Both the position numbers and the translations under genes were made by a program. A stretch of 52,778 bases of DNA, taken from positions 1 through 52,778 of the forward strand of contig UYFQ01000090.1 in the NCBI GenBank assembly GCA_900617105.1. The letters run 5' to 3'. Below are positions 17,331 through 43,951 of the stretch, one piece after another. How positions within the stretch are numbered: position 1 is the stretch's first letter; every line of letters starts with the position of its first letter. The notes under the pieces were generated by a model. The model was not told the origin of the DNA. It searched no databases and saw only the letters and a list, made by a program, of their open reading frames with translations. Origin of the DNA: Hydrurus foetidus (taxonomy: Eukaryota).

Positions 17331-18525
17331 TTATATACGAAAAATTTCGACGCCAAAACCTCATGAAAATTGATGAAAAATCAAAACCAGAACCAGATAA
17401 GGGTTTCCGATCGCTTTTCGATTAATGGTTTCTTCTTTTTTACCACCTCACGAATGGGAAAGGAAATCAAACCAAACCAAACCAAACCAAACCTTTCCGA
17501 ATCCTATTTCGGGGTCATTCTGTGAGATCACATGTAACAGTATCGGCGTCACAATTTGCTTTGCAGACGATGCCACAACCGAAACAGTCAAGCAGCGCTC
17601 TGTTTCTGTCTGAAGAAGCAAGGAATTCAGATCTCGAGAATGTTGATATATTTACAGCAATGGGGAAGAAGTCGAAATATTTTCGCCAGCGAAAAAAAAG
17701 AAACCCTCGTCAGCGGTACCTGCGAAGTCGATGGAAACTTGTCATTTCGGACGCCATGCGACTTGCCTTTGTCCTCCTATGTTGGGGTGGTTTCTCAGGA
17801 TGCTCCAGGAGATGTAATGTCACAGTAGGAATGTCGATGAAACTTTTGGTTATTTCAGTGATGGTGAAAGTGATTTTAGTGGAGAAGCAGATGATTCTGG
17901 CCCAGATTTACACGATGAGCCCGATCAGATATTCTCAGATCCAGTGAAGCTCGAACAGCAGAACCCGATGGATTTCGACGGGAAAATAAACTCCACGTTC
18001 GTGCAAGCAATTCAAATGCGGTGAAGTGTTGTACAACAGCATTTTTAAATTGTCGAACACTAGGAACCCTACCGGTTTTTCAATTACGATGAACCAAGCT
18101 GTGCAGTGCCTCACGTTGTTGAGACTGTTACCGATCAGTGATGTCGGGAGTACCACATGGTCAAAATGCAAGAAGGATAGACGCGATGTCCTCGTAAAAA
18201 AGCTATTCTTGGAGCTTGAAGTTGGTTCGAATACATGGAAATCAGTGACATCAGCGATATTGGAAGGATTTATACCAAGAAAATTAACCGTAAAAAAGTG
18301 TCTGTGCCAGTATTAATTAAAGACGATGATCTATATGTGAAGGAGTCAACGGGAAGTATTTGCGATCGTACCGCACTACTGGCTTGTGCGATTGCTGATC
18401 CCGAGCTTTTACATTTATGGCAGGACATTTCCAAGCCCATAAATGTGGGCGCTCGACCGGGTAATTCATTCCTGATCCTAATATTTGATATTTGTTGTAT
18501 CCATTCCAATATAGCTTTTATTCGA

Positions 18526-18685
18526 ATAAATTCAAATCATTTCAAACCATTTCAAATAAATTCAAATAAATTCAAATAAATTCAAATAAATTCAAATAAA
18601 TTCAAATAAATTCAAATAAGTTCAAATAATTGAAACCAATTCAAATAAATTCAAATCATCTCAAATAAATTCAAATAAATTCAAT
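18526..18685. repeat. AAATAAATTC decamer minisatellite, probably intronic
   Basis: Tandem units visible; bracketed by GTAATT (18461) and TTTAG (18700). Confidence 0.85.
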
Positions 18686-19407
18686 CTTGGCTACTTTAGG
18701 TAGACCAAATGATATAGGTCAGCATAAAATACCCCACCTTCTAACTAAAATTACGGAAGCTCTCTCAATGGTAATCCTTTGAGACGAAAGGATATTATTG
18801 AAAGCCAGCATTTTTTGATAAAGAGCATTGGTATTGGTCTTGTTTGCATACCTATGCAAACAGTGCAAAATATCAAAGTTAGATTGAAATAAGATCAATT
18901 ATAAAAACAAGCAAGTTACCTCAGTTAATGATCACAGAATGGTGTTAGGTGCATGCCTCCATAAGAAAAATAAGCCTGTCGAGGACGAATGTTGCTCATG
19001 CAGGGGAATATCCACTCTCATCCTTCATACATAAATCAGTCATTCTGTAGGCGGCGACATCATTAGTTCCTCCAGGCCACTTTGTGATGGTACAGGATTT
19101 AGTACCACATTCCTACCCTCCGTAGTACCGTATAGCCGTTTGTACATGTGGCTGAGAGTCCTTCTGACATCTCGCAGCTTGTTAGCTTACCTTGCAACTC
19201 TTGCATGCAGAGTTCTACACCACTCTTCTCGTTGTAAGCCTAAACTACCATTCTGCCACTCCTCTAGCTTCTTTGGACTACTGTAGATCTACTCGTTCCG
19301 CTTTTCCCTCTAAATTCTACTACCTGGCCCTTTACTACCATTCATCTATTTAGCTAGACTTCTGTCCACGCGGCCCACCGAGTTGTCAGAAGTCCTTCCA
19401 AATCATT

Positions 19408-24550: not shown

Positions 24551-25463
24551 GACAGTATGGTGGAGTCATTGTAGTCCAAATGAAGCTGGAAGTTCAAATG
24601 AAGCTGGAAGTGGCAGAAAGATAGTTAAGCTTACAATGGGAGAGAGAGGATGAGCTTGCAGAGGTGTAGAACTCTGCATGCAAGAGTTGCAAGGTAAGCT
24701 AACAAGCTGCGAGATTTCAGAAGGACTCTCAGCCACATGTACACACGGCTATACTGTACTATGGAGGGTAGGAATGTGGTACTATATCCTGTACCATCAC
24801 ATTACCCCCACTTACTCCTTTCGGAAATGACCCTAGTCTCGCTTCTCTCTTTCTGCACTACTTTATTTTAAATAAGAATAAAAAATTGAACTATCATTAA
24901 ACCAGCAAAATACATCAAGATTGTTAACAATGATGCAAATAACTACTCTAAAAGAGAGTTTGGAACTAGGTCCTCCGTGGGAGTGTCCGTGCGTCCGACA
25001 GTAGCGATCTTGACCGAGTGTGAGTATGTCAGGTTTAACTGACTAAAACCGTAAAACCCGCGTAGGATGAAAAATGGCTAAATTTTGAGCAAAATCTTAC
25101 ACCGGCATATCTTCGGTAGGAGTGCACACCGGTCCGTGCATACCGGTAGGTGTGCAGCTGGTCCGTGAGTCTCAGAGCATTCCATGGCTCCCATGAGTTA
25201 TGTTCCTCACTATAATTAAGCCACTTGACGAGGAAAGTCAATGTGGAGACCTTTTTGGTTTTGCCTTTATGAGCTGTGATCGCCTCGATGTAGAACTCCA
25301 TGTAGTCGCGGCGAGCTGAGTCCATTGGTTCGATCTTGGCCGGATCGAAAAGGAAGATCTTGAGCTTTGAAGCGTGGATCCTTTTAGTCTTTTGAGAGAC
25401 GATGTTCAAGAGTACATACTCTGTATCTCGATTGGAGATCACCTCCATCGGGCCTTGCCAGCG
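24551..25463 (-). mobile_element. 3' end of a family C chromovirus: integrase tail, chromodomain, PPT and partial 3' LTR
   Basis: RWQGPMEV..FLVKWLNYSEEHNSWEPW; PPT AAGGAGTAAGTGGGGG; LTR starts TGTGATGGTACAGG at 24801 and is an inverted homologue of 19083-19290. Confidence 0.9.
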
Positions 25464-25467
25464 TATA

Positions 25468-26284
25468 TATGTATTTATTAATCTCCCGCGAGAGTAAAAA
25501 ATCGTGATTTTGCTATGTTTTTATGGCAATTTTTGGCGTTTTTACGAGAAAATGTAACGTTTTTATACCCTTTTCTTACGTTATAATTATAACGCAATAT
25601 CAATTATTTTATTTTATAATATTTTACATATTGTATATTTACTCCATTTTAGCAGTGAAAATACTCCTTCATTTTTCTCTTTTTTTCTCACAATATCATT
25701 TTTATGTCTCTTCTAAATCATAATATCTTGACACCATTTTAGCAGTCATTTTTTTGTATCATATTTCTCTTACATTTTCTCGTAAAAACGCCAAAAATTG
25801 CCATAAAAACATAGCAAAATCACGATTTTTTACTCTCGCGGGAGATTAATAAATACTTATGTAATTACCCTATACCCCCCCCCTTGCTCGTCAGAAATGG
25901 GAGCAAATGGGAGCAATGGGAGCAATGGGAGCAAATAAATCCGTCCACAGTAGATTCTATAATTCAGAGAGGACAACGTGACTTCCTAATATCCGTGTCG
26001 TCCTCTCCATTTTTTTTCAGTGTCTCTCGATTTTATACCTCTTTTGCTCCCATTGCTCCCATTTACTCCCATTCTTACTTTTATCTTTAATATCATCTAA
26101 TTCATTCCACTATTCATTGTTCTATCATAATTTATGATAGTTCTTTTTCATTCGTAGTGTAACAAATTATTACACCCCCTTTTTTCTATCCATATATTTA
26201 CAGACCATTCTTTTACTGGATTACATTGGCAGATTTCTCACTTGGATCTATCTCAATTAGAACATCAAACGCACTAATCAGAGA
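25468..26284. repeat. left composite terminal inverted repeat of the PLV
   Basis: 25468-25856 matches the reverse complement of 43571-43951, and ~26078-26284 matches the reverse complement of ~43206-43412. The middle cassette differs between ends. Confidence 0.92.
25896..26076. repeat. iteron-like cassette: 4x ATGGGAGCA(A), spacer with stem-loop, 3x inverted TGCTCCCAT
   Basis: Directly visible; a direct-repeat homologue lies at 31906-32100. Confidence 0.88.
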
Positions 26285-26478
26285 CGCATTTATTATATTC
26301 TAACGCCCCCCGTTGTTCTCTTATCTTAAAAATCATAAAAACATTAAAGCACGTTAAACCTATTATTACCTTATCCGTAAATTTTTGTGTTAGATTGATG
26401 TGTATTTTTTTACCCATTATAATATTTGATACAAAAAAAAACTTTATACTAAAATAGCATTATATTAGTATAAATTTA

Positions 26479-27185
26479 CTAATCACATAGTTCTCTCAGA
26501 TTAGCGTCGAGAATTCCACGACGGTATTTCTGTTGTGTTGATTCGCTATGCATCATACCATCACTAAATTTTAAACGCATTTCTGGCGTTAAATCTGGTT
26601 TTTGTAAAAACTCGCTCACTTTGGAATGTCTTATATAGTTCACCCCCCCATCTATATCTATTTTTTTATTCATGTTAGTGATATAAGTACCAAGACCCGT
26701 CTCTATCTCTTCTGGAAAAAGAAAACCAAGGAGAAGATGACGGTCAGTATACGATACAATAAGAGAACACAATTCAGGAGATAATCTACGAACGATTTTT
26801 CCGTACATATTAGATGTTTTGTAATTATTAAGAGTAATATGACATTTTTCTTTTCTATGGTCAATAAACAAAATATTGTCCGTACCATTATCGTATGGAA
26901 TTATTCGTAATATTCGCAGACAACCAAAATCATCACGAGCAGTCAATTCATCATATAAACTTGCTATGAGGTATCCTTTGGAATCTTTATCATGTCCAGC
27001 GTAAATTCGGTAGGAATTATCGGTGCTGGTTCTGGTATTGCGTTTAGTTCCTTCAATTGCTCCCGACTAATTTTCATTTTGTCAAGAATTCCTTGTTTAT
27101 GCTTCAAATAATATCGTGCTTGCCGATTACGATTTTTTATGGTAATATTTGCTAATTTCTGTGCATCTTCATTTGTATCACTCAT
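26479..27185 (-). pseudogene. tyrosine recombinase, internally deleted or frameshifted
   Basis: LIASLYDELTARDD (R), NYKT (K), NYIRHS (RH), MMHS (H), QKYRR (Y). The N-terminal ORF 26964-27185 joins out of frame near 26990. Confidence 0.82.
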
Positions 27186-27430
27186 TGTATAATAGTATTC
27201 TAAAGAACTCTTTATATTCTAACGTTAGAAATTAAAGTAACATAAAGATAAAATTGTGAATAATGTAATGTATATTACCATGCAATTACCCGATGGTTAT
27301 GAAAATGAATTCATTCAATTTCGTTTTGTCTACGACAATTATCTTCGTGAAGAGATACTTAATTATGTAAAACCCGCTATTTTATGATATTATCACTTTT
27401 GTATCGAAAAATAAAGTCATTATAATATAA

Positions 27431-27601
27431 ATGAGTACAGATACTGAAGATTACAAACAAACTATTGAAGCATATGTCTTATTAATAAAAGAAAACCATA
27501 GATTAATTGCTGAAAACCAAAAACTCAATAGAGTTTTACAACATTACAAAGAAGCCATAGAATATTTGGGGTTTGGGTTATTTGATGAAGATGAAATATA
27601 A
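27431..27601 (+). CDS. small hypothetical coiled-coil protein (56 aa)
   Basis: ATG preceded by TATAATATAA, like other PLV genes; open to TAA at 27601. Confidence 0.5.
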   Translation: MSTDTEDYKQTIEAYVLLIKENHRLIAENQKLNRVLQHYKEAIEYLGFGLFDEDEI

Positions 27602-27631
27602 ATATATAGATACAAAGTAATAAAGAACAAA

Positions 27632-27886
27632 ATGAATACACAAAATGGAAATACACAAATAGATGAAATAGAACTCAAGAGGTTACGATTAATCCAAAAA
27701 CATAATTCAGAGATGTCAGATATTCAAATTGGGATACAAATGCTCAAATTAGACGAAGTACCTGACGCAGTAAGAAAAGCTCTTTATGATGAGATTACTT
27801 ATTCATTTACTGAAAAATGGAATTATTACCGAAAAGAAATGCACAAATTAGATGATGAGATTAGTGATTTAAAAAAGTATTATTAG
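27632..27886 (+). CDS. hypothetical protein
   Basis: 84 aa ORF tiling the viral gene array. Confidence 0.55.
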   Translation: MNTQNGNTQIDEIELKRLRLIQKHNSEMSDIQIGIQMLKLDEVPDAVRKALYDEITYSFTEKWNYYRKEMHKLDDEISDLKKYY

Positions 27887-28000
27887 TATACAATAAAAAC
27901 CCATTTTTACCCCATTTTTTCAATGTCCAATCAAATTGATTTGGATTTGTATCAAACTTTATAACCATATAAAGAATAAACCAGTTATATATTATACGGA

Positions 28001-28225
28001 ATGCCACCAAAACTGACAGAAGAAGAGCGAATTGCCTCAGATTTAAGAAGGGCAGAATATGCCAGAAATTGGCGTGCTAAAAATGCCGAAAAGTTTGAAG
28101 CTTATATGCATGATTAATATATTGCGAACAAGAAACTTATCAATGATAGAAGGAATGAAAACGCAAAAAAACAGCGAATTAGGGCAAAAATAACGACCCC
28201 TGAAAAAATTGATTCAAAAATTTAG
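28001..28225 (+). pseudogene. small basic protein with premature stop
   Basis: MPPKLTEEERIA..YARNWRAKN..MHD*YIANKK; the frame continues after the stop. Confidence 0.5.
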
Positions 28226-28270
28226 GAATACTTTATAAGAGTATAAAGAATTCATACAATATATTATATT

Positions 28271-29256
28271 ATGGATAATAGTGAGATTGTAAAATTACAC
28301 GTGGAAAGTAAGGTTAAATTTATTACCGATGACGATTTGAAAGTTTTTATAAAAGAAGTACAAGGGGTATTCAAGGACGAATTGGAAGAAACGATTTCGC
28401 TAGGGCAGACACATGATTGTGAACGTATTCTGGAAATACAATACATGATACGGAAATATATCATAGACAACCAGCATCGGATTAATTTCAGTGAAAATAT
28501 AACGCTCAGAGAAAGTTCACCATATTCATTGACAAGTTTATTTGGTCTTTACATGATGGTTGTAGCAGATGTTGAACCTATAAAAACCGTAGTTGATGTT
28601 TTACGACAAGTGGAGCATACTTATTACAGAAGCATGGATAGATTTATTGAAGCAGATGCAAGTGAATTATACGCAGTAAGAGCGGTATTTTATGGAACTG
28701 AAATTCATCAAAATATGTTATGTTGTTGTAGTCATAAATGTCATATTGAAAATATGGGAATTATAAAAAATATGATTACTAACTACCACGTTGTAATCGG
28801 TTGCGATTGTATTAAAAAAACTATCTCATTGATAAAGAGGTGATAAAACAAGAACAACAGAAAACTAATAAATTTCTTAAAAATAAGGAAAAATAACTTG
28901 CTATAAGAACACAAAAAAAAATAGAAAAATGTAGATTAGAAAGACGAAATGAAGAAGAATATGAAAGACGTTGTGAAATTACAAGGATAGAACTAATAAC
29001 AGTTACAGTAACAGAAAAAGAAAAAGAAGAAGATGAGAAGAAACGTGAAATAGAAAATGCAATAGTTATGAGAAGGACTGAATTGGTAAATGATATAAGG
29101 AGGAATAATTTCCCCTGTTATATCCAAGTTGGGTATCGAGATAAGGATACTGCAAAAACACTTGGAGCTTGGTGGGACAATGATGGGAGGTCATGGTATA
29201 TCCGCCCTAATTCTATGAATATTTACACATTATTAGAAAAATACTATAAATTCTAA
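28271..29256 (+). pseudogene. disrupted gene with Cys/His cluster and C-terminal DUF5710-like domain
   Basis: CCCSHKC..VIGCDCIKK, a charged linker, then YIQVGYRDKDTAKTLGAWWD..SWY. Confidence 0.6.
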
Positions 29257-29430
29257 AAAAATATATTATTATAAAATGTTTTTTTTTATGTTATTTTTAT
29301 GCAGAAATACCATACAAAAACGATGTCCAATAAAAATTGATTCTGATTTTATAAAAAGTAATAAGTATAACACAACGGAATAAGTATATAAAGAATAAAC
29401 TCCATGTATATTATCTAGCAGTAATATACA

Positions 29431-31881
29431 ATGTCCTATATTCTCAACGAACGTATTCCACTCGAAAAATCTATCTTCATTCACGAAATGCCATTCAAGG
29501 AATTCAAGCAATATTGTAAGTCATGCAGTAATGACGATGAACGCAAGATACTTTTCAATAAGATCAAGCGAATTTGTAACGAAAATATTATCAACAATGG
29601 CTCTGTTACAAGAGAGTATAAATACAGTAATTCTATGGAACATTATGGAAGGTTATGTTCCAATGGAATGCAGGGGGTCAAGAAATCATTCAGGGGGTTC
29701 TTGATGAGTGATACTACTGATATTGATATGGATAATGCTCACCCTGTAATATTGAGTTATATTTGTAAGAAAAATGAAATCGACTGTACTCATATTGATT
29801 ATTACAACAATAATCGGGAAGAAGTGCTATGTTCTTTTCCAGATAAGACAAGAGATGAAGCTAAAAAACACCTATTAAAGTGTATAAATAACGATAAACA
29901 TAACAAGAATGACAAACACGAATTCTATAGAAAATGGGATAATGAAACGAAGAAACAACAATTATCACTTGGTAATATTGAAGAGTATAAAATGATTGGT
30001 AAGACAGTACCCGATGATAGAGATTACAATATTAAAGGTTCTACTATGTCAAGAATTTTATGTACGGTTGAAGATAAGATACTACAAGTTGTACTAAAAA
30101 TTATTGAAAAAGAAAAACTTGAAACCGCTACACTGATGTACGATGGTTGTATGATTTATGGTGACCATTACAATAATAAAGAACTATTGGAGAAAATCAC
30201 AGTAGGGGTTGAAGAACAATTCGCTGGATTGAATATGAAATGGAGTTGTAAACCACACAATAAAGATATTCTTATTCCTGATGGTTGGAAATCGAAGAAA
30301 ATGGAGAAACTATTGAAGCAGACAATTCCTGTTGAAAGAAGTGAAGTAAAAGAGGTTGAAGAAATTGTAGGAGTCATGGAAGGAGATGATTCGGGTGCAT
30401 CAAAAATAATATTGAATGCTTATCCTCACTGGAAATGCTGTAATGATGTATTATACGCATTCGATGATGAGACAGGAATGTGGAGTGATAAAGTAGAGAT
30501 ACATAATCGTGTTATATCACGATATAGTGAGTATTTAGATATTATCAAAATGAATAGTGAGGGGGAACTAAAAAGAACAGGGCGTAATTACGCCAAAAAT
30601 AACCAGAAGAGAAAGGATATTTTCCCCTTTATTAGAGAGAATTGTGTTGATAATGATTGGATTGTAAGAACTGAAACATCATCTCTCGGAAAAATCCTAT
30701 TCTTAAAAGGACACTATGATTTTAAACGTTCGAAATTTATGACGGGTAAAAAAATATCCGCAACAGACGATGAAAAGAAAAACACTGACGAAGAAAACGG
30801 ATTTAACCCTGAAATCGTATTCTTTTATAGAGTCGATCATGAACTCACTGATTTTACAGATGATGATATGGAGTATATGGATTCCATACAAGAACGCCTT
30901 TTCACACTACCACTTGGTAAAGACGTCGGGGATTACCTGACCCTTAATCTAGCACGGGCTTTTTCGGGAGACATTACGATAAAAAGGATTTTGTTTGGAC
31001 TTGGTATGAGCAACAGTGGAAAGGGAATTTTGACTAAAGCCTGTCAATTATCAATGGGCCAATATTGTGGAGTTTTTACGGGTGAAAATCTTGCGTTTAA
31101 TAACGTAAATAATGATGAAGCACAGAAGATGAGATGGGCAATGCTTTTACGAAATAAACGTTTAATCATTAGTAATGAATTATCAACGAAAAAGATGTTA
31201 GATGGAAACCTTATCAAGAAATTGGCGTCTGGCGGTGATACTATACAGGGGCGATTACACGGGCAACATGAAACCGATTTTAAACCGCAATATCTTGCTA
31301 TTCTCCTTGCTAATGACATGCCAGAAATAAAACCCTTCGACACAGCAATTCAAAATAGAGTTAGGGTATATGCTTATACAAAAGCTTTCGTAGATGAACC
31401 CAGAAATGAATATGAACTGAAGAAAGACCCTAATCTTGATAATGAGATGAAATCACGCCTATTCCAGCGTTGCTTCATTGGATTACTCATTAGAAAATAT
31501 CTGGAATTCCAAGACAACGGGTGCATAGAAAATGAACCTAATGAAGTAGTAGTGGCACGTAATGATTGGATAGGTACAACTGAAGAAAACGATATTATCA
31601 ATAAATTCCAGCAGTTTTATGAAATTACAAATTGTGAAAGTGATTTTGTACCAAGTAGAGAAATTGAGAATTATATTCGCACCATGGGTGATATGTCATA
31701 TAAAAAATTTGTGATGGAATTAAAGAAAAATTGTATTTTAAAATCACTAAAAAAAGTTAAAAATGATGGGGAAACAATCAATAAAAAAAGTATCCAAGGT
31801 TGGTTTGGTATTAAACGCATTGAGGATAATATCAACCCTGATAATATCAATCCTAATGATCTCATTACTGAAGAGTTGTAG
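29431..31881 (+). CDS. TVpol (PolA-like primase/polymerase) fused to D5-like SF3 helicase
   Basis: YGRL, DIDMDNAHPVIL (motif A-like), LMYDGCMI (motif C-like); GMSNSGKG Walker A, ISNE Walker B, LLAND motif C, IKKLASGGDTIQGR. Intact 816 aa. Confidence 0.88.
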   Translation: MSYILNERIPLEKSIFIHEMPFKEFKQYCKSCSNDDERKILFNKIKRICNENIINNGSVTREYKYSNSMEHYGRLCSNGMQGVKKSFRGFLMSDTTDIDMDNAHPVILSYICKKNEIDCTHIDYYNNNREEVLCSFPDKTRDEAKKHLLKCINNDKHNKNDKHEFYRKWDNETKKQQLSLGNIEEYKMIGKTVPDDRDYNIKGSTMSRILCTVEDKILQVVLKIIEKEKLETATLMYDGCMIYGDHYNNKELLEKITVGVEEQFAGLNMKWSCKPHNKDILIPDGWKSKKMEKLLKQTIPVERSEVKEVEEIVGVMEGDDSGASKIILNAYPHWKCCNDVLYAFDDETGMWSDKVEIHNRVISRYSEYLDIIKMNSEGELKRTGRNYAKNNQKRKDIFPFIRENCVDNDWIVRTETSSLGKILFLKGHYDFKRSKFMTGKKISATDDEKKNTDEENGFNPEIVFFYRVDHELTDFTDDDMEYMDSIQERLFTLPLGKDVGDYLTLNLARAFSGDITIKRILFGLGMSNSGKGILTKACQLSMGQYCGVFTGENLAFNNVNNDEAQKMRWAMLLRNKRLIISNELSTKKMLDGNLIKKLASGGDTIQGRLHGQHETDFKPQYLAILLANDMPEIKPFDTAIQNRVRVYAYTKAFVDEPRNEYELKKDPNLDNEMKSRLFQRCFIGLLIRKYLEFQDNGCIENEPNEVVVARNDWIGTTEENDIINKFQQFYEITNCESDFVPSREIENYIRTMGDMSYKKFVMELKKNCILKSLKKVKNDGETINKKSIQGWFGIKRIEDNINPDNINPNDLITEEL

Positions 31882-31905
31882 AAAGACAAAAAAAAACTTT
31901 CCTAG

Positions 31906-32100
31906 TAATGGGAGCAAATGGGAGCAAATGGGAGGAATGGGAGCAATGGGAGCAAATAAACCGTCACTATGTACATTCTAAAAATACGTGACGACGAGAC
32001 GTCGTTTATGACTTCCTAATAAACGTCGTCTTCTTTTTTTTTAGTATCTCTGGATTTTTAATCTCTTTTGCTCCCATTGCACCCATTTGCTCCCATTCTT
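31906..32100. repeat. second iteron-like cassette immediately downstream of the helicase gene
   Basis: 5x ATGGGAG(C/G)A, central CGTTTAT-GACTTCCTA-ATAAACG stem-loop, 3x inverted units. Confidence 0.88.
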
Positions 32101-32113
32101 AATATTATATTAG

Positions 32114-32626
32114 TTATACCTTATAAACAATTTCTCCGACATATTTCTTCTTGTTCTTCATTATAGTATCGTATTGTTTGTTTATAGAATCGAGTGAGAA
32201 TTCGTGTAAGACCCCGCCATATTCGGTTTGTACCTGTCTGAATGCGTTTTGTAATTGTGTCCAATTTGCGTAGAACCATTCACTTTTCATACTTGGGCGT
32301 GAGGGAAATATAAGCATTTTTGCGTCAGTTTCTTTTAAATTAGCGATAAGTTTCTTTTCCATTTGCCTGTATATTTTCTTTTTGTCTTCTCCATTTTGTA
32401 TCCTTGGGTAAGATAAGAAAAAGCAGATGTAGAGACCAAGTGGGTAGTACGTGTGGTAATTCTCTATACGCCCCGCTAGATCTTGTGAAGTCATACCGAC
32501 CTTGAATACAGCATTTTTTTTCTTGTCTAATTTTTCGAACGGTAGGAGACAATACAATCCGTTTTTACCTTTGAGGAACAGTTCATCATGTGTCACATTA
32601 TACTTCTTTATCTTAACGGGAACCAT
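32114..32626 (-). CDS. GIY-YIG superfamily (T5orf172-like) protein
   Basis: GLYCL..VFKVGMT..LAGRI..MEKKL..SEWF pattern. Confidence 0.75.
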   Translation of the reverse strand: MVPVKIKKYNVTHDELFLKGKNGLYCLLPFEKLDKKKNAVFKVGMTSQDLAGRIENYHTYYPLGLYICFFLSYPRIQNGEDKKKIYRQMEKKLIANLKETDAKMLIFPSRPSMKSEWFYANWTQLQNAFRQVQTEYGGVLHEFSLDSINKQYDTIMKNKKKYVGEIVYKV

Positions 32627-32910
32627 TATAATATGGAAGTATATTTTTACTCACTCAAAATCACGGAATAAATTCACCACTCAAAATCACGAAAATTATC
32701 GAAAAACCGTAAAAATTAGTCCCCCCTTTTTTTGGCAAAATCTCGTCGTTTTAGACCTAAATCCGATAAATTTTTTTGGGGGGACTAAAAAGTGTCCGTT
32801 AAAGATTTTTAGTTTCGTCCTTTTTGGTCGAAACTTGAGTGGTAAAAACACCGATGTACGTTTTTTCGTTTTTTTGTATCTCTTATTTTATTTTCTATAT
32901 TTAGTATAAT

Positions 32911-33393
32911 ATGCCAAGAAAAGTCGTTGATAAGTTAGAATCTTTAGTAGAAGAAGTCCCCGTAATGGTAGATATTCCCGAAGATAGTGAAGTAGAAGAA
33001 GAACCAAAGACGATAGAAAAGAGTAAGAAACCACGTACGGAAAAACAGAAAGAGGCGTTTTTGAAGGTCATCGAGAAACGAACGGAAGCGAGAGCTATAC
33101 GAGCAAATAATAGAGAGAAGGAAGCGAAGGAGAAAGCAGAAACCGATGCGAAGGAGGCACTGGAGAGAAAGAAGTTGCTGGAGAAAAAGATTGTGAAAAA
33201 AGCAAATATTATTGCGAAAAAGGAATTGAAGAAGCATATTGCCCTTGATGATATTAGCAGTGATGAAGATGAGAGTGACTCTGAAGTAAAAAAGGAACTT
33301 GTACGGTTCAAGAGGTCAGTTGTGGAAAAAGTGATGAAAACAACAGTTCCAGCAGTTCCGGTTCCAGTTGTACCAAAATACAGATTCGTGTAG
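32911..33393 (+). CDS. Lys/Glu-rich coiled-coil hypothetical protein
   Basis: 160 aa, KKPRTEKQKEAF motif, TATAATATG start, directly upstream of the ATPase. Confidence 0.7.
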   Translation: MPRKVVDKLESLVEEVPVMVDIPEDSEVEEEPKTIEKSKKPRTEKQKEAFLKVIEKRTEARAIRANNREKEAKEKAETDAKEALERKKLLEKKIVKKANIIAKKELKKHIALDDISSDEDESDSEVKKELVRFKRSVVEKVMKTTVPAVPVPVVPKYRFV

Positions 33394-33418
33394 ATAAAAT
33401 AGCAGTATACTACATAAA

Positions 33419-34177
33419 ATGTCAATAAGTTTAAAACATAATATACGCCCCGCTTTTCCAATAGCACGAATGAATTGTGACGATGGTCTTGATTCACGAT
33501 TGAATATGTACTCACTGACAAGTTTGATGAATTCACATGAATGTACGGTTTTATGTGGTGCGCCGAAGAGTGGTAAGACGTCTCTATTATGGGGTTTTTT
33601 TAAACACCCGAAATTATTAAAAAAAGTATTCCATAATATTTACATTTTTCAACCAACCGTAAGTGGTGAATCAATGAAGGACAATATCTTCAGTTGTCTT
33701 CCAGATAATCAGCGTTTCGATAAATTGAATTACGATGATTTAAGTGATGTTTTAGAACGAATTACCAATAGCGAAAAATGGGAGGAAAACTGTGTAATTT
33801 TCGATGATCAGGCTGCGTATTTAAAGCAAAAAAGCACACGTACTCTATTTGAAGAATTGGTGTACAATCGTAGGCATCTGAGGACAAATATTTTCTTCTT
33901 AACACAGGGATGGAAGAAAATCCCTTTAGATCTCCGCAAGGTACTTTCTAATATATTTTTATTCAAGGTTGCCAAGAAAGAGTTGTATACAATCTGGGAC
34001 GAAGCAATAGAGGAGAATGTGGATTTAGTGCCAAAAATAAGTAAATTAGTTTTTGATAAGAAGCATAATTTTTTATTTGTGAATGTGGAGAGTAAGAGAA
34101 TGTTTAAAAACTGGGACGAAATTCTAATTTTCGACCCCGACGATGATGATGAGGAAGAGGCGATAAAAACAATATAA
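33419..34177 (+). CDS. A32-like (FtsK/HerA) genome packaging ATPase
   Basis: GAPKSGKT Walker A, CVIFDD Walker B, RRHLRTNIFFLTQ, IPLDLR. Confidence 0.92.
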   Translation: MSISLKHNIRPAFPIARMNCDDGLDSRLNMYSLTSLMNSHECTVLCGAPKSGKTSLLWGFFKHPKLLKKVFHNIYIFQPTVSGESMKDNIFSCLPDNQRFDKLNYDDLSDVLERITNSEKWEENCVIFDDQAAYLKQKSTRTLFEELVYNRRHLRTNIFFLTQGWKKIPLDLRKVLSNIFLFKVAKKELYTIWDEAIEENVDLVPKISKLVFDKKHNFLFVNVESKRMFKNWDEILIFDPDDDDEEEAIKTI

Positions 34178-34201
34178 AGATATAGGACAATATAAGATAT
34201 A

Positions 34202-34639
34202 ATGCCAAGAAAAGCGATTGATTACAGTAAATCACTCGTGTATCGTATAGCGAATAAGGATACAACGTATTATATAGGTTCGACGACTAATTTTAGAAAA
34301 AGAAAAAGTCAACATAAAAGTAATTGTAAAAATGTAAAATCACCAGAATACAATAAAACATTATACCAGTTTATTCGTGAAAATGGTGGTTGGAGTGATG
34401 AGTGGGTTATGGTTCTCGTTCAGTCATATCCTAATTGTAAAACATCAATTGAACTATTGAAATATGAACGGGAACATTATGATATTTACAAACCAGAAAT
34501 GAATGTAAAGAAACCTTATTTATATGAAGGTGAGAAAGAAGAACATTGTAAAGAATATAAAATAGAAAAAGTGAAATTGAATACTCTGGAAAAGCCAAAA
34601 CCAAAAACAAAAGTAAAGACGGAGACAAAATTCATTTAA
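34202..34639 (+). CDS. GIY-YIG endonuclease
   Basis: VYRI..YYIGSTTNFRKRKSQHK..LYQFIRENGGW..YEREH. Confidence 0.88.
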   Translation: MPRKAIDYSKSLVYRIANKDTTYYIGSTTNFRKRKSQHKSNCKNVKSPEYNKTLYQFIRENGGWSDEWVMVLVQSYPNCKTSIELLKYEREHYDIYKPEMNVKKPYLYEGEKEEHCKEYKIEKVKLNTLEKPKPKTKVKTETKFI

Positions 34640-34661
34640 ATATCTAATAGTATCTTAACTA

Positions 34662-35399
34662 ATGTCAATTAAGATACTACTCAACTCAAAAGATAGGGTA
34701 AATAGTGCTACTTCAGCAAATGATTGTGAGTTTCGTGTCAATTGGGGTGCGATATTGGACGATGGAAAATACCGTGTAAGTTATAGCATTTGTAAGCAGT
34801 TAATTCCCGTAATACCAGAAATACCTTGGGTTTTTAGAGTGCAGAGTCCAACATCAACAATACCAACAACAGTAGATGGTTTTACCTTATCAAATAATAA
34901 TGTGAACACTGTTATTGATAGTGTACGTGAGAATGTATTTAATTTTAGGGGTAATGGATTTTTATCATTAAGCGTCCCCACGCCCGTGAATTCAACGAAG
35001 ACATTGTGGGTGATGATTCCGAATATGACTGTAACTAAAAATAATAATGTGTTTAGTTCCCGAAAAATGCCAGTATGGTTTAATCGCACAATTTTTTTAA
35101 GAGCATCTGTTAATTTTGGTGTATCAGGAGGAGGTGATGTTATATCATCAGTAGCACAGACATCAGGTGTATGGAAATTTTACGCAATAACAACAACCGC
35201 AACAGAGACAAAAATATATGTAGATGGTGTGCTTGTAACATCGAGGAATGTGACGTGGGGAGGTGATACAGCAGCGATAAATTTCGGTGCGTATCTTGGT
35301 GCATCGTTTTTAACGGGCCTTCTGGACGATATGAGGTTATATTCGAGTACTCTCACAGCAACAGATATAAATGATTTATATACAAGAACATTATTATAA
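34662..35399 (+). CDS. N-terminal penton-like segment fused to a LamG/concanavalin-like domain
   Basis: ILLNSKDR..VNWG resembles the N-terminus of ORF 35694. WKFYAIT..KIYVDG..FTGLLDDMRLY-like ending (FLTGLLDDMRLYSSTLTATDINDLY) is a LamG signature. Confidence 0.75.
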   Translation: MSIKILLNSKDRVNSATSANDCEFRVNWGAILDDGKYRVSYSICKQLIPVIPEIPWVFRVQSPTSTIPTTVDGFTLSNNNVNTVIDSVRENVFNFRGNGFLSLSVPTPVNSTKTLWVMIPNMTVTKNNNVFSSRKMPVWFNRTIFLRASVNFGVSGGGDVISSVAQTSGVWKFYAITTTATETKIYVDGVLVTSRNVTWGGDTAAINFGAYLGASFLTGLLDDMRLYSSTLTATDINDLYTRTLL

Positions 35400-35417
35400 T
35401 ATACCTATTATTGTATA

Positions 35418-35672
35418 ATGTCTAATATAACTTTGCATGTAGATTTGGGTCAAGATACAGTTACAACAACATCACCAACACAAGTTGTATCGAGAAACAC
35501 GAGAGAATTAGGAAGATTTATACCCCGTGTAGATGTGAATCAGACAATTGAATTACGTAGTAGACCACAGAATAACACTTTTAGTGTCAAATTAATGGAT
35601 AATTTGACAAATTTAGTATCAACTTTAGATTATGAATATATCATACAAATTTGTTTTGAAAAGATAGAATAA
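35418..35672 (+). CDS. C-terminal half of a penton-like beta protein
   Basis: Aligns by eye to the C-terminal two-thirds of ORF 35694 (DLGQ/NLGQ, SPT, GRFIP/GSIIP, EYIIQICFEKI/EYLLALNFEKI). Confidence 0.7.
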   Translation: MSNITLHVDLGQDTVTTTSPTQVVSRNTRELGRFIPRVDVNQTIELRSRPQNNTFSVKLMDNLTNLVSTLDYEYIIQICFEKIE

Positions 35673-35693
35673 TTTCTTAACCTAGATTATATC

Positions 35694-36149
35694 ATGTCAA
35701 TTTACAATGTACTAATCAATAGTAAAAACAGAATTCCAGCACTAACATCATCATCAAATTCAAAATACTACTTCAATTGGGGGGGTGTCCTACCTGAAGG
35801 GCAGTATTTGCTTCGTTGGGGTTTTACGTGTTCTGGAGTCGATACAACAGTAAATAAAATAGGATTAGTATCAATAAATTTAGGACAGAGTAGTGTGTAT
35901 ACAGCATCTCCAACAAATGTGGGTGCATCAACCACAAATATAATTGGTTCTATCATCCCAAATGAAATTGGTACATCTTCGTTTTTGTATGGCGATTCCA
36001 ACACAAATAATATTGTCTATCTTGGTAATGCTCCATCAGTGAATGAATTTACAGTGACAATAACTTCATTAGACGATTCATTGTGGACGGATTCTGCAGG
36101 ATCTGAGATTCCAGAGTACCTTTTAGCTTTAAATTTCGAGAAAATATGA
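35694..36149 (+). CDS. small single-jelly-roll / minor capsid-like protein
   Basis: VLINSKNR N-terminus, FTVTIT and EYLLALNFEK C-terminal strands; structural gene context. Confidence 0.6.
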   Translation: MSIYNVLINSKNRIPALTSSSNSKYYFNWGGVLPEGQYLLRWGFTCSGVDTTVNKIGLVSINLGQSSVYTASPTNVGASTTNIIGSIIPNEIGTSSFLYGDSNTNNIVYLGNAPSVNEFTVTITSLDDSLWTDSAGSEIPEYLLALNFEKI

Positions 36150-36165
36150 ATAGGTATAGTATAGA

Positions 36166-36893
36166 ATGTCATATTTTACATACAACCTACAGACAATGGC
36201 AGGACTGGAGAGTGTCAGTGATGGTGTTGCAACCTTGGAAAATGGAGTATTAGAATGTGATAGGGTAATAGCAGATGATATTGAGACAAATAGTTTAAAT
36301 ACAATAAATTTGAGTGTATTGAATAATATTACAGCGGGTGAATCGATTGCAATAGGACGTGATGTAGCAGTCGGAAATAGTATTGTCTCTCCGAATTTGT
36401 ACACAACAAAATTAGTATCAAGTATTTTGGAATGCAAAAAGTTAAAAACAGAAAATATTCATTTGTATAATAATTTACAATCATATGATGATACAAATGT
36501 GGGATATATAAAAACTGCAATAATAGCATCATCATCATTATTATTTACAAATACAGTAAGAGTATCGTCTCTTTACCTTTACCAATCGGTGTATATACCA
36601 TATCATATTGTTTTACTCTGGGATTGTCAGGTGTGTCACTTCCATCACTACATAGTTTATCTCATGGACTTTCTACAGATAATCAGAATTTTAATGTGAT
36701 ACAAAAAAAGAACTATCAAAACTTGGTGTATAACGACAGTTTATCTTATGTAACATTTTACGAAACGGGATTTTTCCATATTACAGATTATAATAGTTCA
36801 TTGTATCTATTAATAAGACATAATACGGCAGTAAATACCTCGAGTAGAATACTAATAGAGAACGCCAAAATATCAGTATTACGAATAGCATAA
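36166..36893 (+). pseudogene. putative fibre or structural protein, frameshifted near 36580-36625
   Basis: Two overlapping ORFs; beta-rich repeats; located in the structural cluster. Confidence 0.5.
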
Positions 36894-36925
36894 ATAATAT
36901 TATAATATAACCTTATAGTAATATA

Positions 36926-38374
36926 ATGTCAAATATTTCAGCATTAAATTTGGCAGTAAGCGGGACTTGTGGAATAAGTGGTGGTGTCAGTTTATCATCA
37001 CCTCTAATCAGTGGATCATCTTGTTCTTATCAAGGTATTACAACAAATACATTGACCACAACTGGTGCAGTTCTTCATAACTCTCTACCAATATGCAATG
37101 TATTACCATCATTGCCGAATCAGTTAGTATCAAAGGGATATACTGATATACAGAACAACGCACAGAGCGTCTTAATTAGTGATTTAGAAATACGAGCAAC
37201 AGCAATAGAAGATTTAAATGTAGTTCAAGATACACGACTTGCAGATATAGAAAATACAAATGCATTGCAAGATGTATCAATAAGCGATATTGAAGTTGTA
37301 AATACCAACCAAAGGACGAGATTAGATGGAATTGACACTTTGAATAATACGCAAAATACAGATATAAGTGCGTTACAGACAAGGGCAACAGCGATTGAGG
37401 GTGTCAATACAACGCAGAACTCGAATATTACAGCATTACAGACAAGGGCAACAGCAATTGAGGGTGTCAATACAACGCAGAACACGAATATCACAGCATT
37501 ACAGACACGTGCAACAGCAATAGAAACGGTCAATACTACACAGAATACGAGTATCACTGCGTTACAGACACGTGCAACAGCAATAGAAACGGTCAATACC
37601 ACGCAAAATACGAATATTACAGCATTACAGACACGTGCTACAGCAATAGAAACCGTGAATACGAATCAGGCGACATCAATCACGAATATAGATACATTGA
37701 ATACAACACAGAACACCCGCATAACCAATGTGGAAAATACAAACACTAATCAATCAAACTTATTGACAACTATGATTACTTTAAACACGACGCAAAATGA
37801 CCGCCTGACAGCGATTGAGGGAGTAAATACGACTCAAGGGACAAATATCACTGCATTACAGACACGTGCTACAGCAATAGAGACCGTAAACACTAATCAA
37901 GACGCAGTAAATACCACACAAAATACTAATATTACAGCTTTACAGCAGAAGACGACTCCAATTGTATATACAACCCCCGTAGCGGGTGCATTAACATCAT
38001 TAACGTCATCATTAGACATACTACCTTATGTATCAAGTACATTCTTAAAAGTGTATAATATTAACAATCAAGCAATCACTTGTTTAGGACAGGCGATTTT
38101 CGCTGGGTTAGGGATCATAACGACACGATTACAATTAGGTAATTTTGGGACGATAATGACTGGAATGTCTTTTGGTAATACTTTAAGCGTCGTTGGGAAT
38201 AATGTGGTGAATTTTCCAGCATCATCATTTTCAGGAGGAGTTGTACCAAGAGTGCTAATTAGTCCATCAGGGAATGGTGTTTTTTTTGTAGTCAGCAGAA
38301 CCCTTATATCATTTACTTATTCCGCATCAGTAGCGGGTGTGAATGTAGATTGGATCGCATTACAGTCAGTTTAA
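36926..38374 (+). CDS. fibre-like protein with 21 aa coiled-coil repeats
   Basis: TRATAIE(G/T)VNTTQNTNITALQ repeats (63 bp units, ~37345-37945) and a beta-rich C-terminal head ending VDWIAL. Confidence 0.78.
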   Translation: MSNISALNLAVSGTCGISGGVSLSSPLISGSSCSYQGITTNTLTTTGAVLHNSLPICNVLPSLPNQLVSKGYTDIQNNAQSVLISDLEIRATAIEDLNVVQDTRLADIENTNALQDVSISDIEVVNTNQRTRLDGIDTLNNTQNTDISALQTRATAIEGVNTTQNSNITALQTRATAIEGVNTTQNTNITALQTRATAIETVNTTQNTSITALQTRATAIETVNTTQNTNITALQTRATAIETVNTNQATSITNIDTLNTTQNTRITNVENTNTNQSNLLTTMITLNTTQNDRLTAIEGVNTTQGTNITALQTRATAIETVNTNQDAVNTTQNTNITALQQKTTPIVYTTPVAGALTSLTSSLDILPYVSSTFLKVYNINNQAITCLGQAIFAGLGIITTRLQLGNFGTIMTGMSFGNTLSVVGNNVVNFPASSFSGGVVPRVLISPSGNGVFFVVSRTLISFTYSASVAGVNVDWIALQSV

Positions 38375-38395
38375 ATATCAATATATCACATACAA

Positions 38396-38626
38396 ATGAC
38401 ACAATTCATTGAGTCATCTAATTCTATAACAGTAATAACTCTAACATTCGGTTTTTTATCAATGGCGTTAATCACAATAACAACGTGTATTTTCAAGGTG
38501 AAGTGTCGTGAGTGTGTTTTAGGGTGTTGTAAAATTACCCGTGATGTATCAGCAGAAAACTTGGAATTGGAGATAGAGAGCAGAACTAATCGTAAAGATA
38601 ATATACCCCCGCCATCAATCGTTTAG
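38396..38626 (+). CDS. small membrane protein with Cys cluster
   Basis: N-terminal hydrophobic helix followed by KCRECVLGCCKITRD. Confidence 0.6.
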   Translation: MTQFIESSNSITVITLTFGFLSMALITITTCIFKVKCRECVLGCCKITRDVSAENLELEIESRTNRKDNIPPPSIV

Positions 38627-38673
38627 TTTTAGCATTATATTAATATGTTTTAATATAATATACTAAAAGTAAA

Positions 38674-38937
38674 ATGGGATTTTTTGGATCTTTGTTAGGA
38701 GGTGGATTAGGTGCTATCGGTTCTAAATTTTTACCCATTCCAGGCGTGGATGGTCAGGTGCTCGGAACAGCCCTTGGTGGACTAGCCCCGTTCAAGACAG
38801 GCGGTGCAGTTGGTCCAAGAAATAGAGCGTGTCTACTTCATAAGAATGAATACGTATTGCCCGCAAATGCTAAACCAACAAAAGCACAACGAGCAATCGT
38901 AGCAAAAAACAAGCGTAATGCCAAGAAAAAGAAGTAG
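38674..38937 (+). CDS. small Gly-rich protein with N-myristoylation consensus and basic tail
   Basis: MGFFGS (MGxxxS), Gly-rich amphipathic N-terminus, LLHKNEYVLP, KKKK tail. Confidence 0.65.
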   Translation: MGFFGSLLGGGLGAIGSKFLPIPGVDGQVLGTALGGLAPFKTGGAVGPRNRACLLHKNEYVLPANAKPTKAQRAIVAKNKRNAKKKK

Positions 38938-38998
38938 ATGAAAAAAAATGATATAGAAAAAAGTTAATACATTATAATACATAAAGCGAGGTTTTATA

Positions 38999-39677
38999 AT
39001 GCCAAAGAAACCGATTAATTATAAGAAAACGTGTGTTTACAGATTAATTTACAACGATATTACCTGTTATGTTGGTTCAACTACCAATATGAGACAGCGT
39101 AAATCACAACATAGACGTGGTTGTTATAACGAGAAAAATAAGGACTACAATTATCCATTGTATAAGTTTATTCGTGAGAATGAAGGGTTTAACAACTGGA
39201 AAATGATTATGGTTCATGCGTACCCTGAGTGTAAAACAAGTGAAGAGTTAAGAATGCATGAGAGGAATCACATTGAAGAACTCAAACCATCGTTAAACGT
39301 AAATCGCCCTATTGTAACAGAGGAAGAAAAAAAATGATGCAAATGACCGAAGCAGATAAGCACGTTTAGAAAATCCAGAACAATTAAAACAATGGAGATT
39401 GGAAAATGTAGAACACGTAAAAAAATATAAGTTACAATATTGTGTTGATAATGCTGATAAAATTAGAGAGTACGCAGATGCACATAGAGATGAAATAAAC
39501 TTAAAAGGTAAAATGTATCGTGAAGCAAACGCCGAAAAGATAAAGGAGCGAGATAAAAAGACAACTTGTATGTGAATGTGGACGTGTTGTAAATTTACGC
39601 CATAAAAAAAGTCACGAGAAATTAAAAATTCACATAAACTTGATGGAAGCAAAAAAGAAGTAAAGCATGATACATAA
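38999..39677 (+). pseudogene. second GIY-YIG endonuclease, disrupted, with C-terminal CECG..H..H finger
   Basis: Paralogue of 34202-34639 (VYRL..YVGSTTNMRQRKSQH). Frameshift in the A-run near 39330 and a later stop. Confidence 0.8.
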
Positions 39678-39707
39678 TAAAATATATATAAGAATCTTTT
39701 ATAATGT

Positions 39708-40228
39708 CTAACCACCTGTGTTTGTTTTTTTTCTAACCTCTTTTCCCGTGCCTTTTGGTTACGAAGTAATCGACGTGTTTCTATCTCGTCTGGGGTCAAT
39801 GGGTGTTGAGCCCGTGTTCGTCTTGCTATTGGAGTAGTATTATCATAGTAGAAATTATCATCAGGTGTTTTGTATAAGTCCGTAAGATTTACAACCGCTT
39901 CATCATATTTTCTTTTACTTGGAACTGGAATTTTACTAACTCGTATTCCTTGAGGGGTCAATGTCTGTATTCCAACGCTATTTGTAGGTATTCTAACTGG
40001 TTCAAATACAGTTTCTTTTACCGTTCCTACTGTATTATAAATAATTGGAGGAGATGGTTCACCTTGTAAAGTAATATACTGTGGTTGTTGGCGATACGCA
40101 GGTTGTGGAGCAGTCCTTTTTGCCCTTGCTTTGGTGGTGTTAATATTTACTACGACGCTTTGTGATTGTTTCTGTTTCTGCTTCAACCCCTTTTTAGATA
40201 GTTTTTTGGTAATTCTCTTTTTTGCCAT
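39708..40228 (-). CDS. basic putative core protein (KQKQKQSQSVVVNI motif)
   Basis: Lys/Arg-rich. The called ORF runs on to 39293, probably through a homopolymer frameshift near 39730; the likely stop is TAG at 39708-39710. Confidence 0.6.
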
Positions 40229-40312
40229 TTACAATACCAATACATTAAAATAATCTTGAAAAACTATTTTTGAAAAATTCTGGTATATCACGATTCAGTA
40301 CGTTATTAAACT

Positions 40313-40933
40313 TCATGTTGTTGGTTGAAAATAAACTGTATCCCGTGCTTGGTTTTGTAAAAGTTCATTGCTTTGTATCTTATCTATTGCCGTAGTTGCA
40401 ACCGCTCCTACATCTGTAGTTGTATTTACAATTTTACGAAATTGTTCATTACCTTCAAATAATTGTCTAGTATCCTGTAAAACAAACTTTTCGAGAGCGT
40501 CTGTATTTAACCCGTTAGAAATGAGTAGTGAGATTATAAAGTTCTGACAGTTGTTGTCTTGGGCTTTGTAACTGAAATAAGAACCCCCCATTTTGCTTTT
40601 CGTTTTTGAAAGCATATCATTGAGAGTCAGTCCAGCATTGATAGGTACAGGTAGAGTTTCCGTCCCTATCCTCATTTTTGAGAATTTGTAAATTTGTATC
40701 ACTTCGTTTTTCTCAATAACATGTAAAGAGTTTTTAGTTTGAACAACCATAAAGAGATGATACAAAGTGTCATAATCCGTATTTTCCATCTTTTTCTCCA
40801 ACTGTCCTCGTGATGTAATATTGAGTAGGAATTTTAATACTTTTGACAGCGGGGTTCGATTTACCGTGATTTTCGTGATTTCATCGTCGCCTATCCTATG
40901 GATAATCTTTTGAACAGGATTTAAATATGACAT
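40313..40933 (-). CDS. permuted papain-like (PPPDE/NlpC-P60 type) peptidase candidate
   Basis: LYHLFMVV His precedes Y..QDNNCQNF Cys. The likely start is MSYLN after TATATAATG. Confidence 0.62.
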   Translation of the reverse strand: MSYLNPVQKIIHRIGDDEITKITVNRTPLSKVLKFLLNITSRGQLEKKMENTDYDTLYHLFMVVQTKNSLHVIEKNEVIQIYKFSKMRIGTETLPVPINAGLTLNDMLSKTKSKMGGSYFSYKAQDNNCQNFIISLLISNGLNTDALEKFVLQDTRQLFEGNEQFRKIVNTTTDVGAVATTAIDKIQSNELLQNQARDTVYFQPTT

Positions 40934-40958
40934 ATTATAGTATAAGAGAATATAAAAA

Positions 40959-41902: not shown

Positions 41903-41949
41903 TGCGTTTTTATTCAAATTAATCTCTTTTGATACACTATACTTAAAGA

Positions 41950-43275: not shown

Positions 43276-43951
43276 AAGAATGGTCTGTAAATATATGGAT
43301 AGAAAAAGGGGGTGTAACAATTTGTTACACTACGAATGAAAAAGAACTGCCGTAATTTACGGCACTACAAATGAAATAGTGTAATGAATTAGATGGTATT
43401 TAAGATAAAAAGTGAGGAGTGAGGAGTGAGGACTTGTTTTAAAGTCGTATAGAGGAGTTGAAACAAACATTTAAAAAAAGAAAAAGTTTGTTTGAACTAT
43501 ATTAAATAACATTTTTTAAGGTCCTCACTCATCACTCCTCACTTTTAATCTTAAATAGCATCTAATAACTTATGTATTTATTTATCCCCTGCGAGAGTAA
43601 AAAAACGTGATTTTGCTTACTTTTAATGGCATTTTTTGGCGTTTTTACGAGAAAATGTAAGAGAAATATGATACAAAAAAATGACTGCTAAAATGGTGTC
43701 AAGATATTATGATTTAGAAGAGACATAAAAATGATATTGTGAGAAAAAAAGAGAAAAATGAAGGAGTATTTTCACTGCTAAAATGGAGTAAATATACAAC
43801 ATGTAAAATATTATAAAATAGAGGCGTTATAATTATAACGTAAGAAAAGGGTATAAAAACGTTACATTTTCTCGTAAAAACGCCAAAAAATGCCATTAAA
43901 AGTAAGCAAAATCACGTTTTTTTACTCTCACAGGGGATAAATAAATACATA
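43206..43951. repeat. right composite terminal inverted repeat of the PLV
   Basis: Contains the MCP 3' end, the AGTGAGG cassette (43388-43567) and the fold-back module (43571-43951). Confidence 0.92.

Follow-up and report, generated by a model that had tools for sequence, protein, structure and literature searches.

The 52,778-nucleotide stretch of Hydrurus foetidus DNA that we have analysed (GenBank assembly GCA_900617105.1, contig UYFQ01000090.1; the window in what follows) carries an endogenous Polinton-like virus (PLV), and two cassettes of convergent short repeats in this element, denoted A and B, are in our estimate, with a probability of roughly 70%, iteron origins of replication of the kind found in Staphylococcus pathogenicity islands (SaPIs) and P4, paired with the helicase encoded next to them. 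The winged-helix tip of this helicase is predicted to read the cassettes and, in our best reading, helicase and origin are exchanged together. An earlier note on this DNA had proposed the cassettes as cognate origins of the helicase, and the proposal gains support from a survey in which 54 of 87 related genes have such a cassette at their 3' end, from co-variation of the repeats with the wing in one of two helicase clades, and from an RFX/P4-like model of the helicase C-terminus.

Cassette A (25896-26073) lies within the left terminal inverted repeat (TIR) and is made up of convergent ATGGGAGCA arrays of 4+3 units around a 111-bp inner spacer, with + units at 25897, 25907, 25916 and 25925 and - units at 26045, 26054 and 26064, the last with one mismatch. 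Cassette B (31907-32097) begins 26 bp past the helicase stop codon and contains 5+3 units around a 114-bp inner spacer that has a dyad at its centre; its five + units are at 31908-31954, one of them with a single mismatch, and its - units at 32069, 32078 (one mismatch) and 32088. The convergent arrays around a spacer, and a distance to the helicase stop that had been given as ~25 bp, are thus much as first described. All 12 exact copies of ATGGGAGCA in the window fall within the two cassettes, and when up to one mismatch is allowed there are 25 copies, 15 of them within the cassettes, as compared with a chance expectation of 9.0 for the whole window. The cassettes are 79% identical over 203 columns, with a longest identical run of 25 bases. 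Cassette B is probably an origin and cassette A would then be a terminal origin that matches the resident helicase. A conserved core inside the stems of the spacers had also been claimed. The sequence TGACTTCCTAATA is indeed found inside stems in both cassettes, at 25979 and 32009, but an identical run of 13 nt is expected by chance between spacers that are 69-76% alike (P=0.21-0.50), and no copy within two mismatches occurs in the spacers of the 63 cassette-bearing relatives described below, so that a special core is not supported and a family motif is rejected. Folding relative to shuffled sequence is significant for the stem of cassette B (z -3.2) and not for that of cassette A (z -0.8), and in the alignment the homologous stems appear to contain one compensated pair. 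Among the relatives, spacer folding gives z below -2 in 26 of 62 cases vs 13 of 62 neighbouring controls, so that a stem-loop at the spacer centre is only weakly indicated as a common feature.

The replicase itself (29431-31881, + strand) is intact and consists of 816 amino acids, with an N-terminal domain, a D5-like superfamily 3 (SF3) helicase and a C-terminal winged helix (approximately residues 720-797). We take the N-terminal domain to be TVpol/PolA-like on the basis of its motifs, an assignment that is not confirmed by searches of Pfam, PHROG or PDB sequences, none of which returned a match. A model of the full protein (predicted local distance difference test score, pLDDT, of 87) retrieves African swine fever virus PrimPol and poxvirus D5/E5 in Foldseek with an E value of 1e-16. 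The model of the C-terminal 100 residues gives Z scores of 9.7 to RFX5 (root-mean-square deviation 3.1, 78 residues aligned), 8.3 to RFX1 and 6.3 to the P4 origin-binding domain (PDB 1ka8), so that this domain is predicted to fold like these proteins. The wing of a close homologue, P0012, is almost identical to that of the window replicase, and those of two others, P0002 and P0013, are divergent. RFX uses helix 3 and the wing to touch DNA (PMC2777425), and it is with this contact region that the region of co-variation described below coincides.

A survey of the sequence downstream of homologous helicase genes for co-varying iterons, which the earlier note had suggested, gave a positive result, with the repeat unit tracking the wing in clade 2. 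A profile scan for clade 1, to which the window helicase belongs, produced 58 loci, of which the 29 that reach the helicase C-terminus (L008-L036) were kept, leaving 27 after removal of duplicates; L037, which is truncated, was left out together with 28 matches that cover ~150 residues. For clade 2 the best 80 of 131 loci were considered, 67 of these were used (the other 13 were 3'-cut, matched in the N-terminal domain only or were mirror copies) and 60 remained after removal of duplicates. Cassettes were identified with a fuzzy detector of 7-mers, which required a minimum of 2+2 units and a gap of 60-200, and the 3' window was set from -140 to +420 around the stop codon; strict and 5-mer detectors were positive for 12/29 and 16/29 of the clade-1 loci, and the fuzzy version with controls was adopted. 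A cassette was found at the 3' end of 17 of 27 clade-1 and 37 of 60 clade-2 genes, that is 54 of 87, and upstream of nine more (three in clade 1, six in clade 2), so that 63 of 87 have one in some position. None of 230 random segments was positive, and the stops of other open reading frames (ORFs) were positive in 13 of 458 cases, ten of these no more than 0.9 kb from the helicase gene, two of them additional copies in L027 and one unrelated. The median distance from stop to cassette is 47.5 bp in the 54 relatives (26 bp in the window). The G-rich strand comes first in 53 of 63 cassettes, and for these 53 loci the inner gap has a median of 105 bp with quartiles of 97-111. The unit itself varies widely (GGTTGGG, GGTCGCC, GGTAGAG, GTGAGGA, GGCGGGT and others). 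Other scans were much less productive: with a single protein as query no locus was found in viral contigs and with a close alignment only one, a metagenome scan gave one locus that ends before the gene does and a scan of prokaryote genomes gave none.

Several of the surveyed loci have features of their own. In a 330-kb giant-virus contig (L073:9994-10446, locus L095) a replicase is followed by two stacked cassettes, the first of TGAGGGG and the second of GTGAGGA units, with an RNA polymerase gene adjacent, and similar insertions are seen in the large contigs of L089-L097 and L140. Eight loci (L087, L107, L115-L117, L120, L126 and L153) have three arrays downstream of the helicase, with an extra outward-facing array before the convergent pair.

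Co-variation between protein and repeat was quantified with sliding windows of 30 residues compared against iteron similarity, with the ATPase core held constant and with family-wise correction. For the 28 dereplicated clade-2 loci only windows in the wing pass correction (partial r of 0.38 and 0.35; p of 0.002 and 0.0035), and the ATPase core itself shows r of 0.02 with the iteron. A wing motif and a TGAGG unit are both present, motif only, unit only and both absent in 8/0/0/20 of the dereplicated loci and in 14/1/1/27 of all 43. Loci with the motif are spread across the helicase tree, with 7 changes compared with a shuffled mean of 7.2, and in two of the eight (L083 and L130) the cassette precedes the gene, a long way from the codons of the wing. 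Because the repeats change along with the helicase tip across relatives, origins have likely been swapped together with their helicase. No similarity between the helicases of the two clades was detectable by tblastn in the test on the window, and across well-supported branches of a quick tree built from 53 N-terminal domains there are at least three switches of helicase clade.

The layout is that of the SaPI Rep/PriRep5 origins (PMC9371898), and of the features of SaPI- and P4-type systems iterons just 3' of the replicase gene, at least two opposed iterons on each side and a C-terminal winged helix (here modelled) are found. There are differences as well. SaPIs are bacterial phage satellites with iterons of 5-6 nt, whereas the present element is a eukaryotic virus with units of 7-10 nt, an N-terminal domain taken as PolA-like and additional copies in its terminal repeats; binding has been demonstrated for SaPI (PMC9371898) and is predicted for the cassettes here. 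For SaPI Rep, binding to facing arrays, loading of two hexamers and melting of the spacer have been proposed (PMC9371898). By analogy, the winged-helix domains of the PLV replicase would bind to the arrays that face each other, a pair of hexamers would be loaded and the spacer of ~100 bp melted; the N-terminal domain would then prime, so that replication would need no protein-primed polymerase. P4 alpha and archaeal pRN1 ORF904 likewise combine a primase/polymerase, an SF3 helicase and an RFX-like winged helix (PMC2777425, PMC4234260), and the pRN1 origin is 3' of its gene, as is cassette B, but is a stem-loop (PMC2777425).

For PLVs, end modules have been described in which inverted repeats are proposed as a primase-helicase origin, including a direct repeat of >300 bp in Gezel-14T that is present both in the TIR and immediately past the recombinase/helicase module; mobile helicases are also flanked by short repeat arrays (PMC11296320). 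The available text of that paper contains no iteron unit, convergent geometry, winged-helix code, family survey or element in which the terminal cassettes are mismatched. Replicases have been reported to be mosaic in Polisuviricotina, with PolA-SF3 fusions, two SF3 clades, domain swapping, repeats that bracket replicases and a possible autonomous mobility (bioRxiv 10.64898/2026.10.13.758929); the part of this preprint at hand gives no cis-acting partner for the swapped helicase and uses the word 'origin' once, in another sense. In the endogenous virophages and PLVs of Halocafeteria, TIR palindromes accompany replicases other than the protein-primed polymerase B and hairpin priming has been proposed; the one example drawn has palindromes of 52 nt (bioRxiv 10.64898/2026.07.28.741278). 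Here arms of 90 bp and a spacer of ~200 bp are followed by an iteron cassette. Our search of the PLV and virophage literature, which covered the running text of openly accessible papers, found no description of such arrays among the papers listed, no paper that mentions both Polinton-like viruses and iterons, and no use of the word 'iteron' in 40 of 127 papers on virophages and PLVs. The feature is real: its origin layout is of a familiar kind, its setting is one for which no description was found, and its code can be tested.

The terminal repeats of the element provide a further view of how helicase and origin may travel. The outer part of the left TIR is a palindrome (25464-25863) with inverted arms of 94 bp and a spacer of 212 bp, and the right end has a corresponding palindrome (43563-43951) with arms of 90 bp and a spacer of 201 bp. 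The arms differ at 1/90 positions within an end and at 10/90 between ends, with the spacer nearly identical at both, and the homogeneity within each end suggests fold-back copying at each terminus; a search with the arm sequence returned no matches. Further in, the segment at 26079-26283, which includes an inverted copy of the 3' end of the capsid gene, is 91% identical to 43410-43205 (right inner segment, 43205-43410). At the position that corresponds to cassette A, the right TIR has cassette C (43411-43543), with convergent GTGAGGA arrays of 3+3 units, one of them imperfect, around a spacer of ~90 bp. The two TIRs are ~91% alike both outside and inside of the cassette, and the cassette itself is replaced with sharp borders. 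Neither the position of cassette A in the left TIR nor the different cassette at the right end had been noticed earlier. A DNA search with the cassette C motif only found eight loci on six contigs, and in four of the six the arrays are beside one clade of helicases (DUF5906/VapE-like) with the wing motif, in proteins whose N-terminal domain is 37-44% identical to that of the window replicase and whose helicase differs. Cassette C is thus probably the origin of another, clade-2 helicase that is absent from the window, where no remnant of one was found.

The element is likely a chimera, with a right end that retains an origin of the type belonging to another helicase. This is supported by the cassette swap within TIRs that are ~91% alike, by arm variants specific to each end, by left and right flanks that are not continuous with each other, by the fact that no target duplication is seen, by the N-terminal tree and by the relatives of the A32 ATPase, which is 48-52% identical to that of seven clade-2 loci, the closest two having clade-2 helicases and GTGAGGA cassettes. 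The A-B divergence (79% identity) is older than that between the TIRs (91%), so that a recent copying of B to give A is unlikely and the left block more likely arrived as a whole. The mismatch between A and C could have arisen by recombination of two sister viruses, as free or integrated copies, with different replicases. Since only a few hundred bases separate the codons of the specificity-determining wing from the array that it targets, a single recombination would transfer helicase and origin as a functional pair, and the cassettes in the terminal repeats would then need to be changed to match the new helicase. GC-rich, phage-like contigs (L068/L069/L074 and L070) contain several intergenic convergent GTGAGGA arrays and no replicase.

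It had further been suggested that the ~6 kb between A and B form an exchangeable or excisable replication cassette. As an alternative to paired origins, the A-B block with its recombinase and helicase would be autonomous and excised as a ~6-kb circle, with A and B as recombination sites, which we regard as unlikely. The order of the window (end palindrome, cassette, recombinase-like gene, helicase, cassette) is repeated in L012, with copies that are 82% alike, direct copies surround the gene in L075 (90%), and the published replicase-bracketing repeats (bioRxiv 10.64898/2026.10.13.758929) and the Gezel-14T direct repeat (PMC11296320) point in the same direction. However, a remote second cassette is found in 6 of 63 relatives, or in 5 if that of L130, a mirror within a palindromic contig, is left aside, and direct copies flank the helicase in only 2 of 63; the contigs are partial, so these counts are lower bounds. 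The second copies in L088 and L027 are inverted, and that in L019 is next to an integrase gene and is found again, in inverted orientation, where the contig begins, with the direct pair enclosing the integrase and not the helicase. Moreover, cassette A is a TIR copy, A and B share no more than 25 identical bases in a row, no conserved core site is evident, the shared 13-nt run being at chance level and absent from relatives, and the recombinase is internally deleted. This gene (26479-27185, - strand, probably a tyrosine recombinase) is broken; what is left corresponds to residues 1-59 and 212-385 in the 390-residue L012 protein, with ~150 residues absent from the middle, and gives no Pfam or PHROG match. 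Bracketing appears from the sequences to be the exception and adjacency to the helicase the rule, and A and B would bracket the block because the end module (palindrome, cassette, recombinase) adjoins the helicase-origin module. Excision of a 6-kb unit is accordingly not borne out, and exchange survives in a different form, with helicase, wing and origin changing together under related N-terminal domains and with end cassettes that differ.

Equally doubtful is an assignment of the arrays to operators or 3'-end hairpin signals that regulate or terminate transcription and have no role as origins. Hairpin polyadenylation operates in giant viruses and in Sputnik, cassette B is between converging genes, the arrays are able to pair as a long hairpin and RFX-type folds are those of transcription factors. 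The arrays are, though, no general feature of gene ends, the few at other ORF ends (13/458) being nearly all the same cassettes, copies occur also upstream of genes and in terminal repeats, and the narrow spacing of ~105 bp together with the strand polarity (53/63) suits loading of a protein better than a hairpin. We attach slightly less weight still to the arrays being origins in an element whose A/C mismatch stems from the assembly, which would have joined two different endogenous copies. The region is rich in repeats, frameshifts are many and the flanks do not continue one another, but no core gene is seen duplicated or missing across the element, and a join would still imply sister viruses with TIRs that are 91% alike and cassettes of different types. 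Finally, neutral slippage repeats spread by gene conversion of the TIRs would account for 3-5 units per arm, in variable number, and for AT-rich, low-complexity surroundings; this explanation is very improbable and largely refuted by the fixed position, spacing and convergence of the arrays and by co-variation with the protein across two helicase clades.

A number of observations nevertheless weigh against paired helicase and origin. No cassette was detected in 24 of 87 loci (7 in clade 1, 17 in clade 2), although fewer than 250 bp were available in four of these. In the window's own clade 1 the co-variation peak is in the same region (residues 761-790) with r of 0.41 and is not significant after correction (p of 0.33, n=19), the wing motif was defined post hoc with the data already seen, and tight linkage could by itself carry wing and array together. 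The ATGGGAGCA cassette is known from a single locus, motif searches having given no second (the seven viral loci found are unrelated, and the gapped pattern is present in none), so that the link between ATGGGAGCA and the window wing rests on one element. Five actinomycete loci match the window motif, none with a matching helicase, and two of the six GTGAGGA contigs, both GC-rich, have no matching helicase gene; such arrays therefore also occur elsewhere. Spacer B is 66% A+T, which is the element average, and the medians of 70% and 78% are from relatives that are themselves AT-rich. Foldseek ranks RFX chains first, but its winged-helix matches have E values of 0.09 or worse, and the match to the P4 origin-binding domain has a Z below 8. 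The pattern among ATPase relatives is weak because 22 of 29 are clade 2 overall, so that a top seven of clade 2 has P of ~0.11. Lastly, the pRN1 protein, which is similar, gave no footprint 3' of its gene (PMC2777425).

We lean, with more hesitation, towards a wider proposal in which PLVs that lack a protein-primed polymerase, together with stray replicase copies in giant viruses, use SaPI-like iteron origins governed by a wing-to-iteron code, with tip and origin travelling as linked units, terminal origins rewritten after swaps and the present element caught half-converted. This bears on how most PLVs start replication, would provide a mechanism for a constant turnover of replicases that has so far had no explained cis-acting partner, and would extend the rep-ori layout of phage satellites to eukaryotic viruses. 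A precise candidate origin can be named in 63 of the 87 related loci, pairs of unit and wing are testable with a domain of 100 residues and 200 bp of DNA, and the type of replicase could be guessed from DNA alone.

The element as a whole occupies 25468-43951 (18.5 kb) amid long terminal repeat (LTR) retrotransposons, with a G+C content of 0.34 vs 0.47 and 0.42 in its flanks. Its TIRs, A32 ATPase, nucleases and double jelly-roll (DJR)-like capsid product identify it as an endogenous PLV, the DJR major capsid protein, A32 ATPase and TIRs expected of such a virus all being present. The marker hidden Markov models of PMC9952930 identify virophages by a virophage-type hexon, ATPase and protease; a Pfam scan of 23 element ORFs revealed no protease. 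The packaging ATPase gene is at 33419-34177 (+ strand; PF04665, E 2e-8) and the major capsid protein gene at 41950-43275 (+ strand), with an in-frame stop at 42997-42999; look-alikes of the capsid product have scores of 0.96-0.98, with Capsid_N/DJR families in a minority of their members. The stop in the capsid gene and the ~150 residues missing from the recombinase indicate that the element is decaying. Small ORFs, partly broken and one with a DUF5710, lie between recombinase and helicase (27632-29256, + strand). A T5orf172 (GIY-YIG-type) nuclease gene (32114-32626, - strand; PF10544, E 6e-4, above its curated cut-off) converges on cassette B, and T5orf172 has been associated with mobile helicases (PMC11296320). 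There is a further pair of GIY-YIG genes, one at 34202 and the other at 38999, which are 65% alike.

The recombinase family (L012:653-1825 and window 26479-27185) resembles a telomere resolvase ResT/TelK cluster with a score of 0.90; for the L012 protein there is likeness both to Phage_integrase (16% of a cluster) and to ResT/TelK clusters. The end of L012 (1-102) is palindromic, and the L130/L131 contig is so throughout. N15-like replicons are linear with hairpin ends, and this comparison serves only as a lead for a ResT/TelK-like recombinase combined with palindromic ends. Five named actinomycete genomes (L155-L159, each at 10001-10133) have in common a conserved stretch in which GGGAGCA repeats converge, and give no tblastn match to the element proteins.

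The surrounding DNA is rich in retrotransposons, with Pfam matches to reverse transcriptase, RNase H, rve and chromodomain. To the left the element is flanked by a cut Gypsy integrase and to the right by an LTR-like stretch followed by another Gypsy element. A pair of 1.4-kb inverted repeats (6569-7942 and 51168-52492, 91% alike) surrounds the entire nest of retroelements and virus, and a second inverted pair (19083-19279 and 24591-24801, 85%) encloses a Gypsy-type pol on the + strand. The host DNA also contains a tandem array of the 10-bp unit AATTCAAATA at 18499-18714 and a TACG/TATG-rich repeat tract at 13542-14050.

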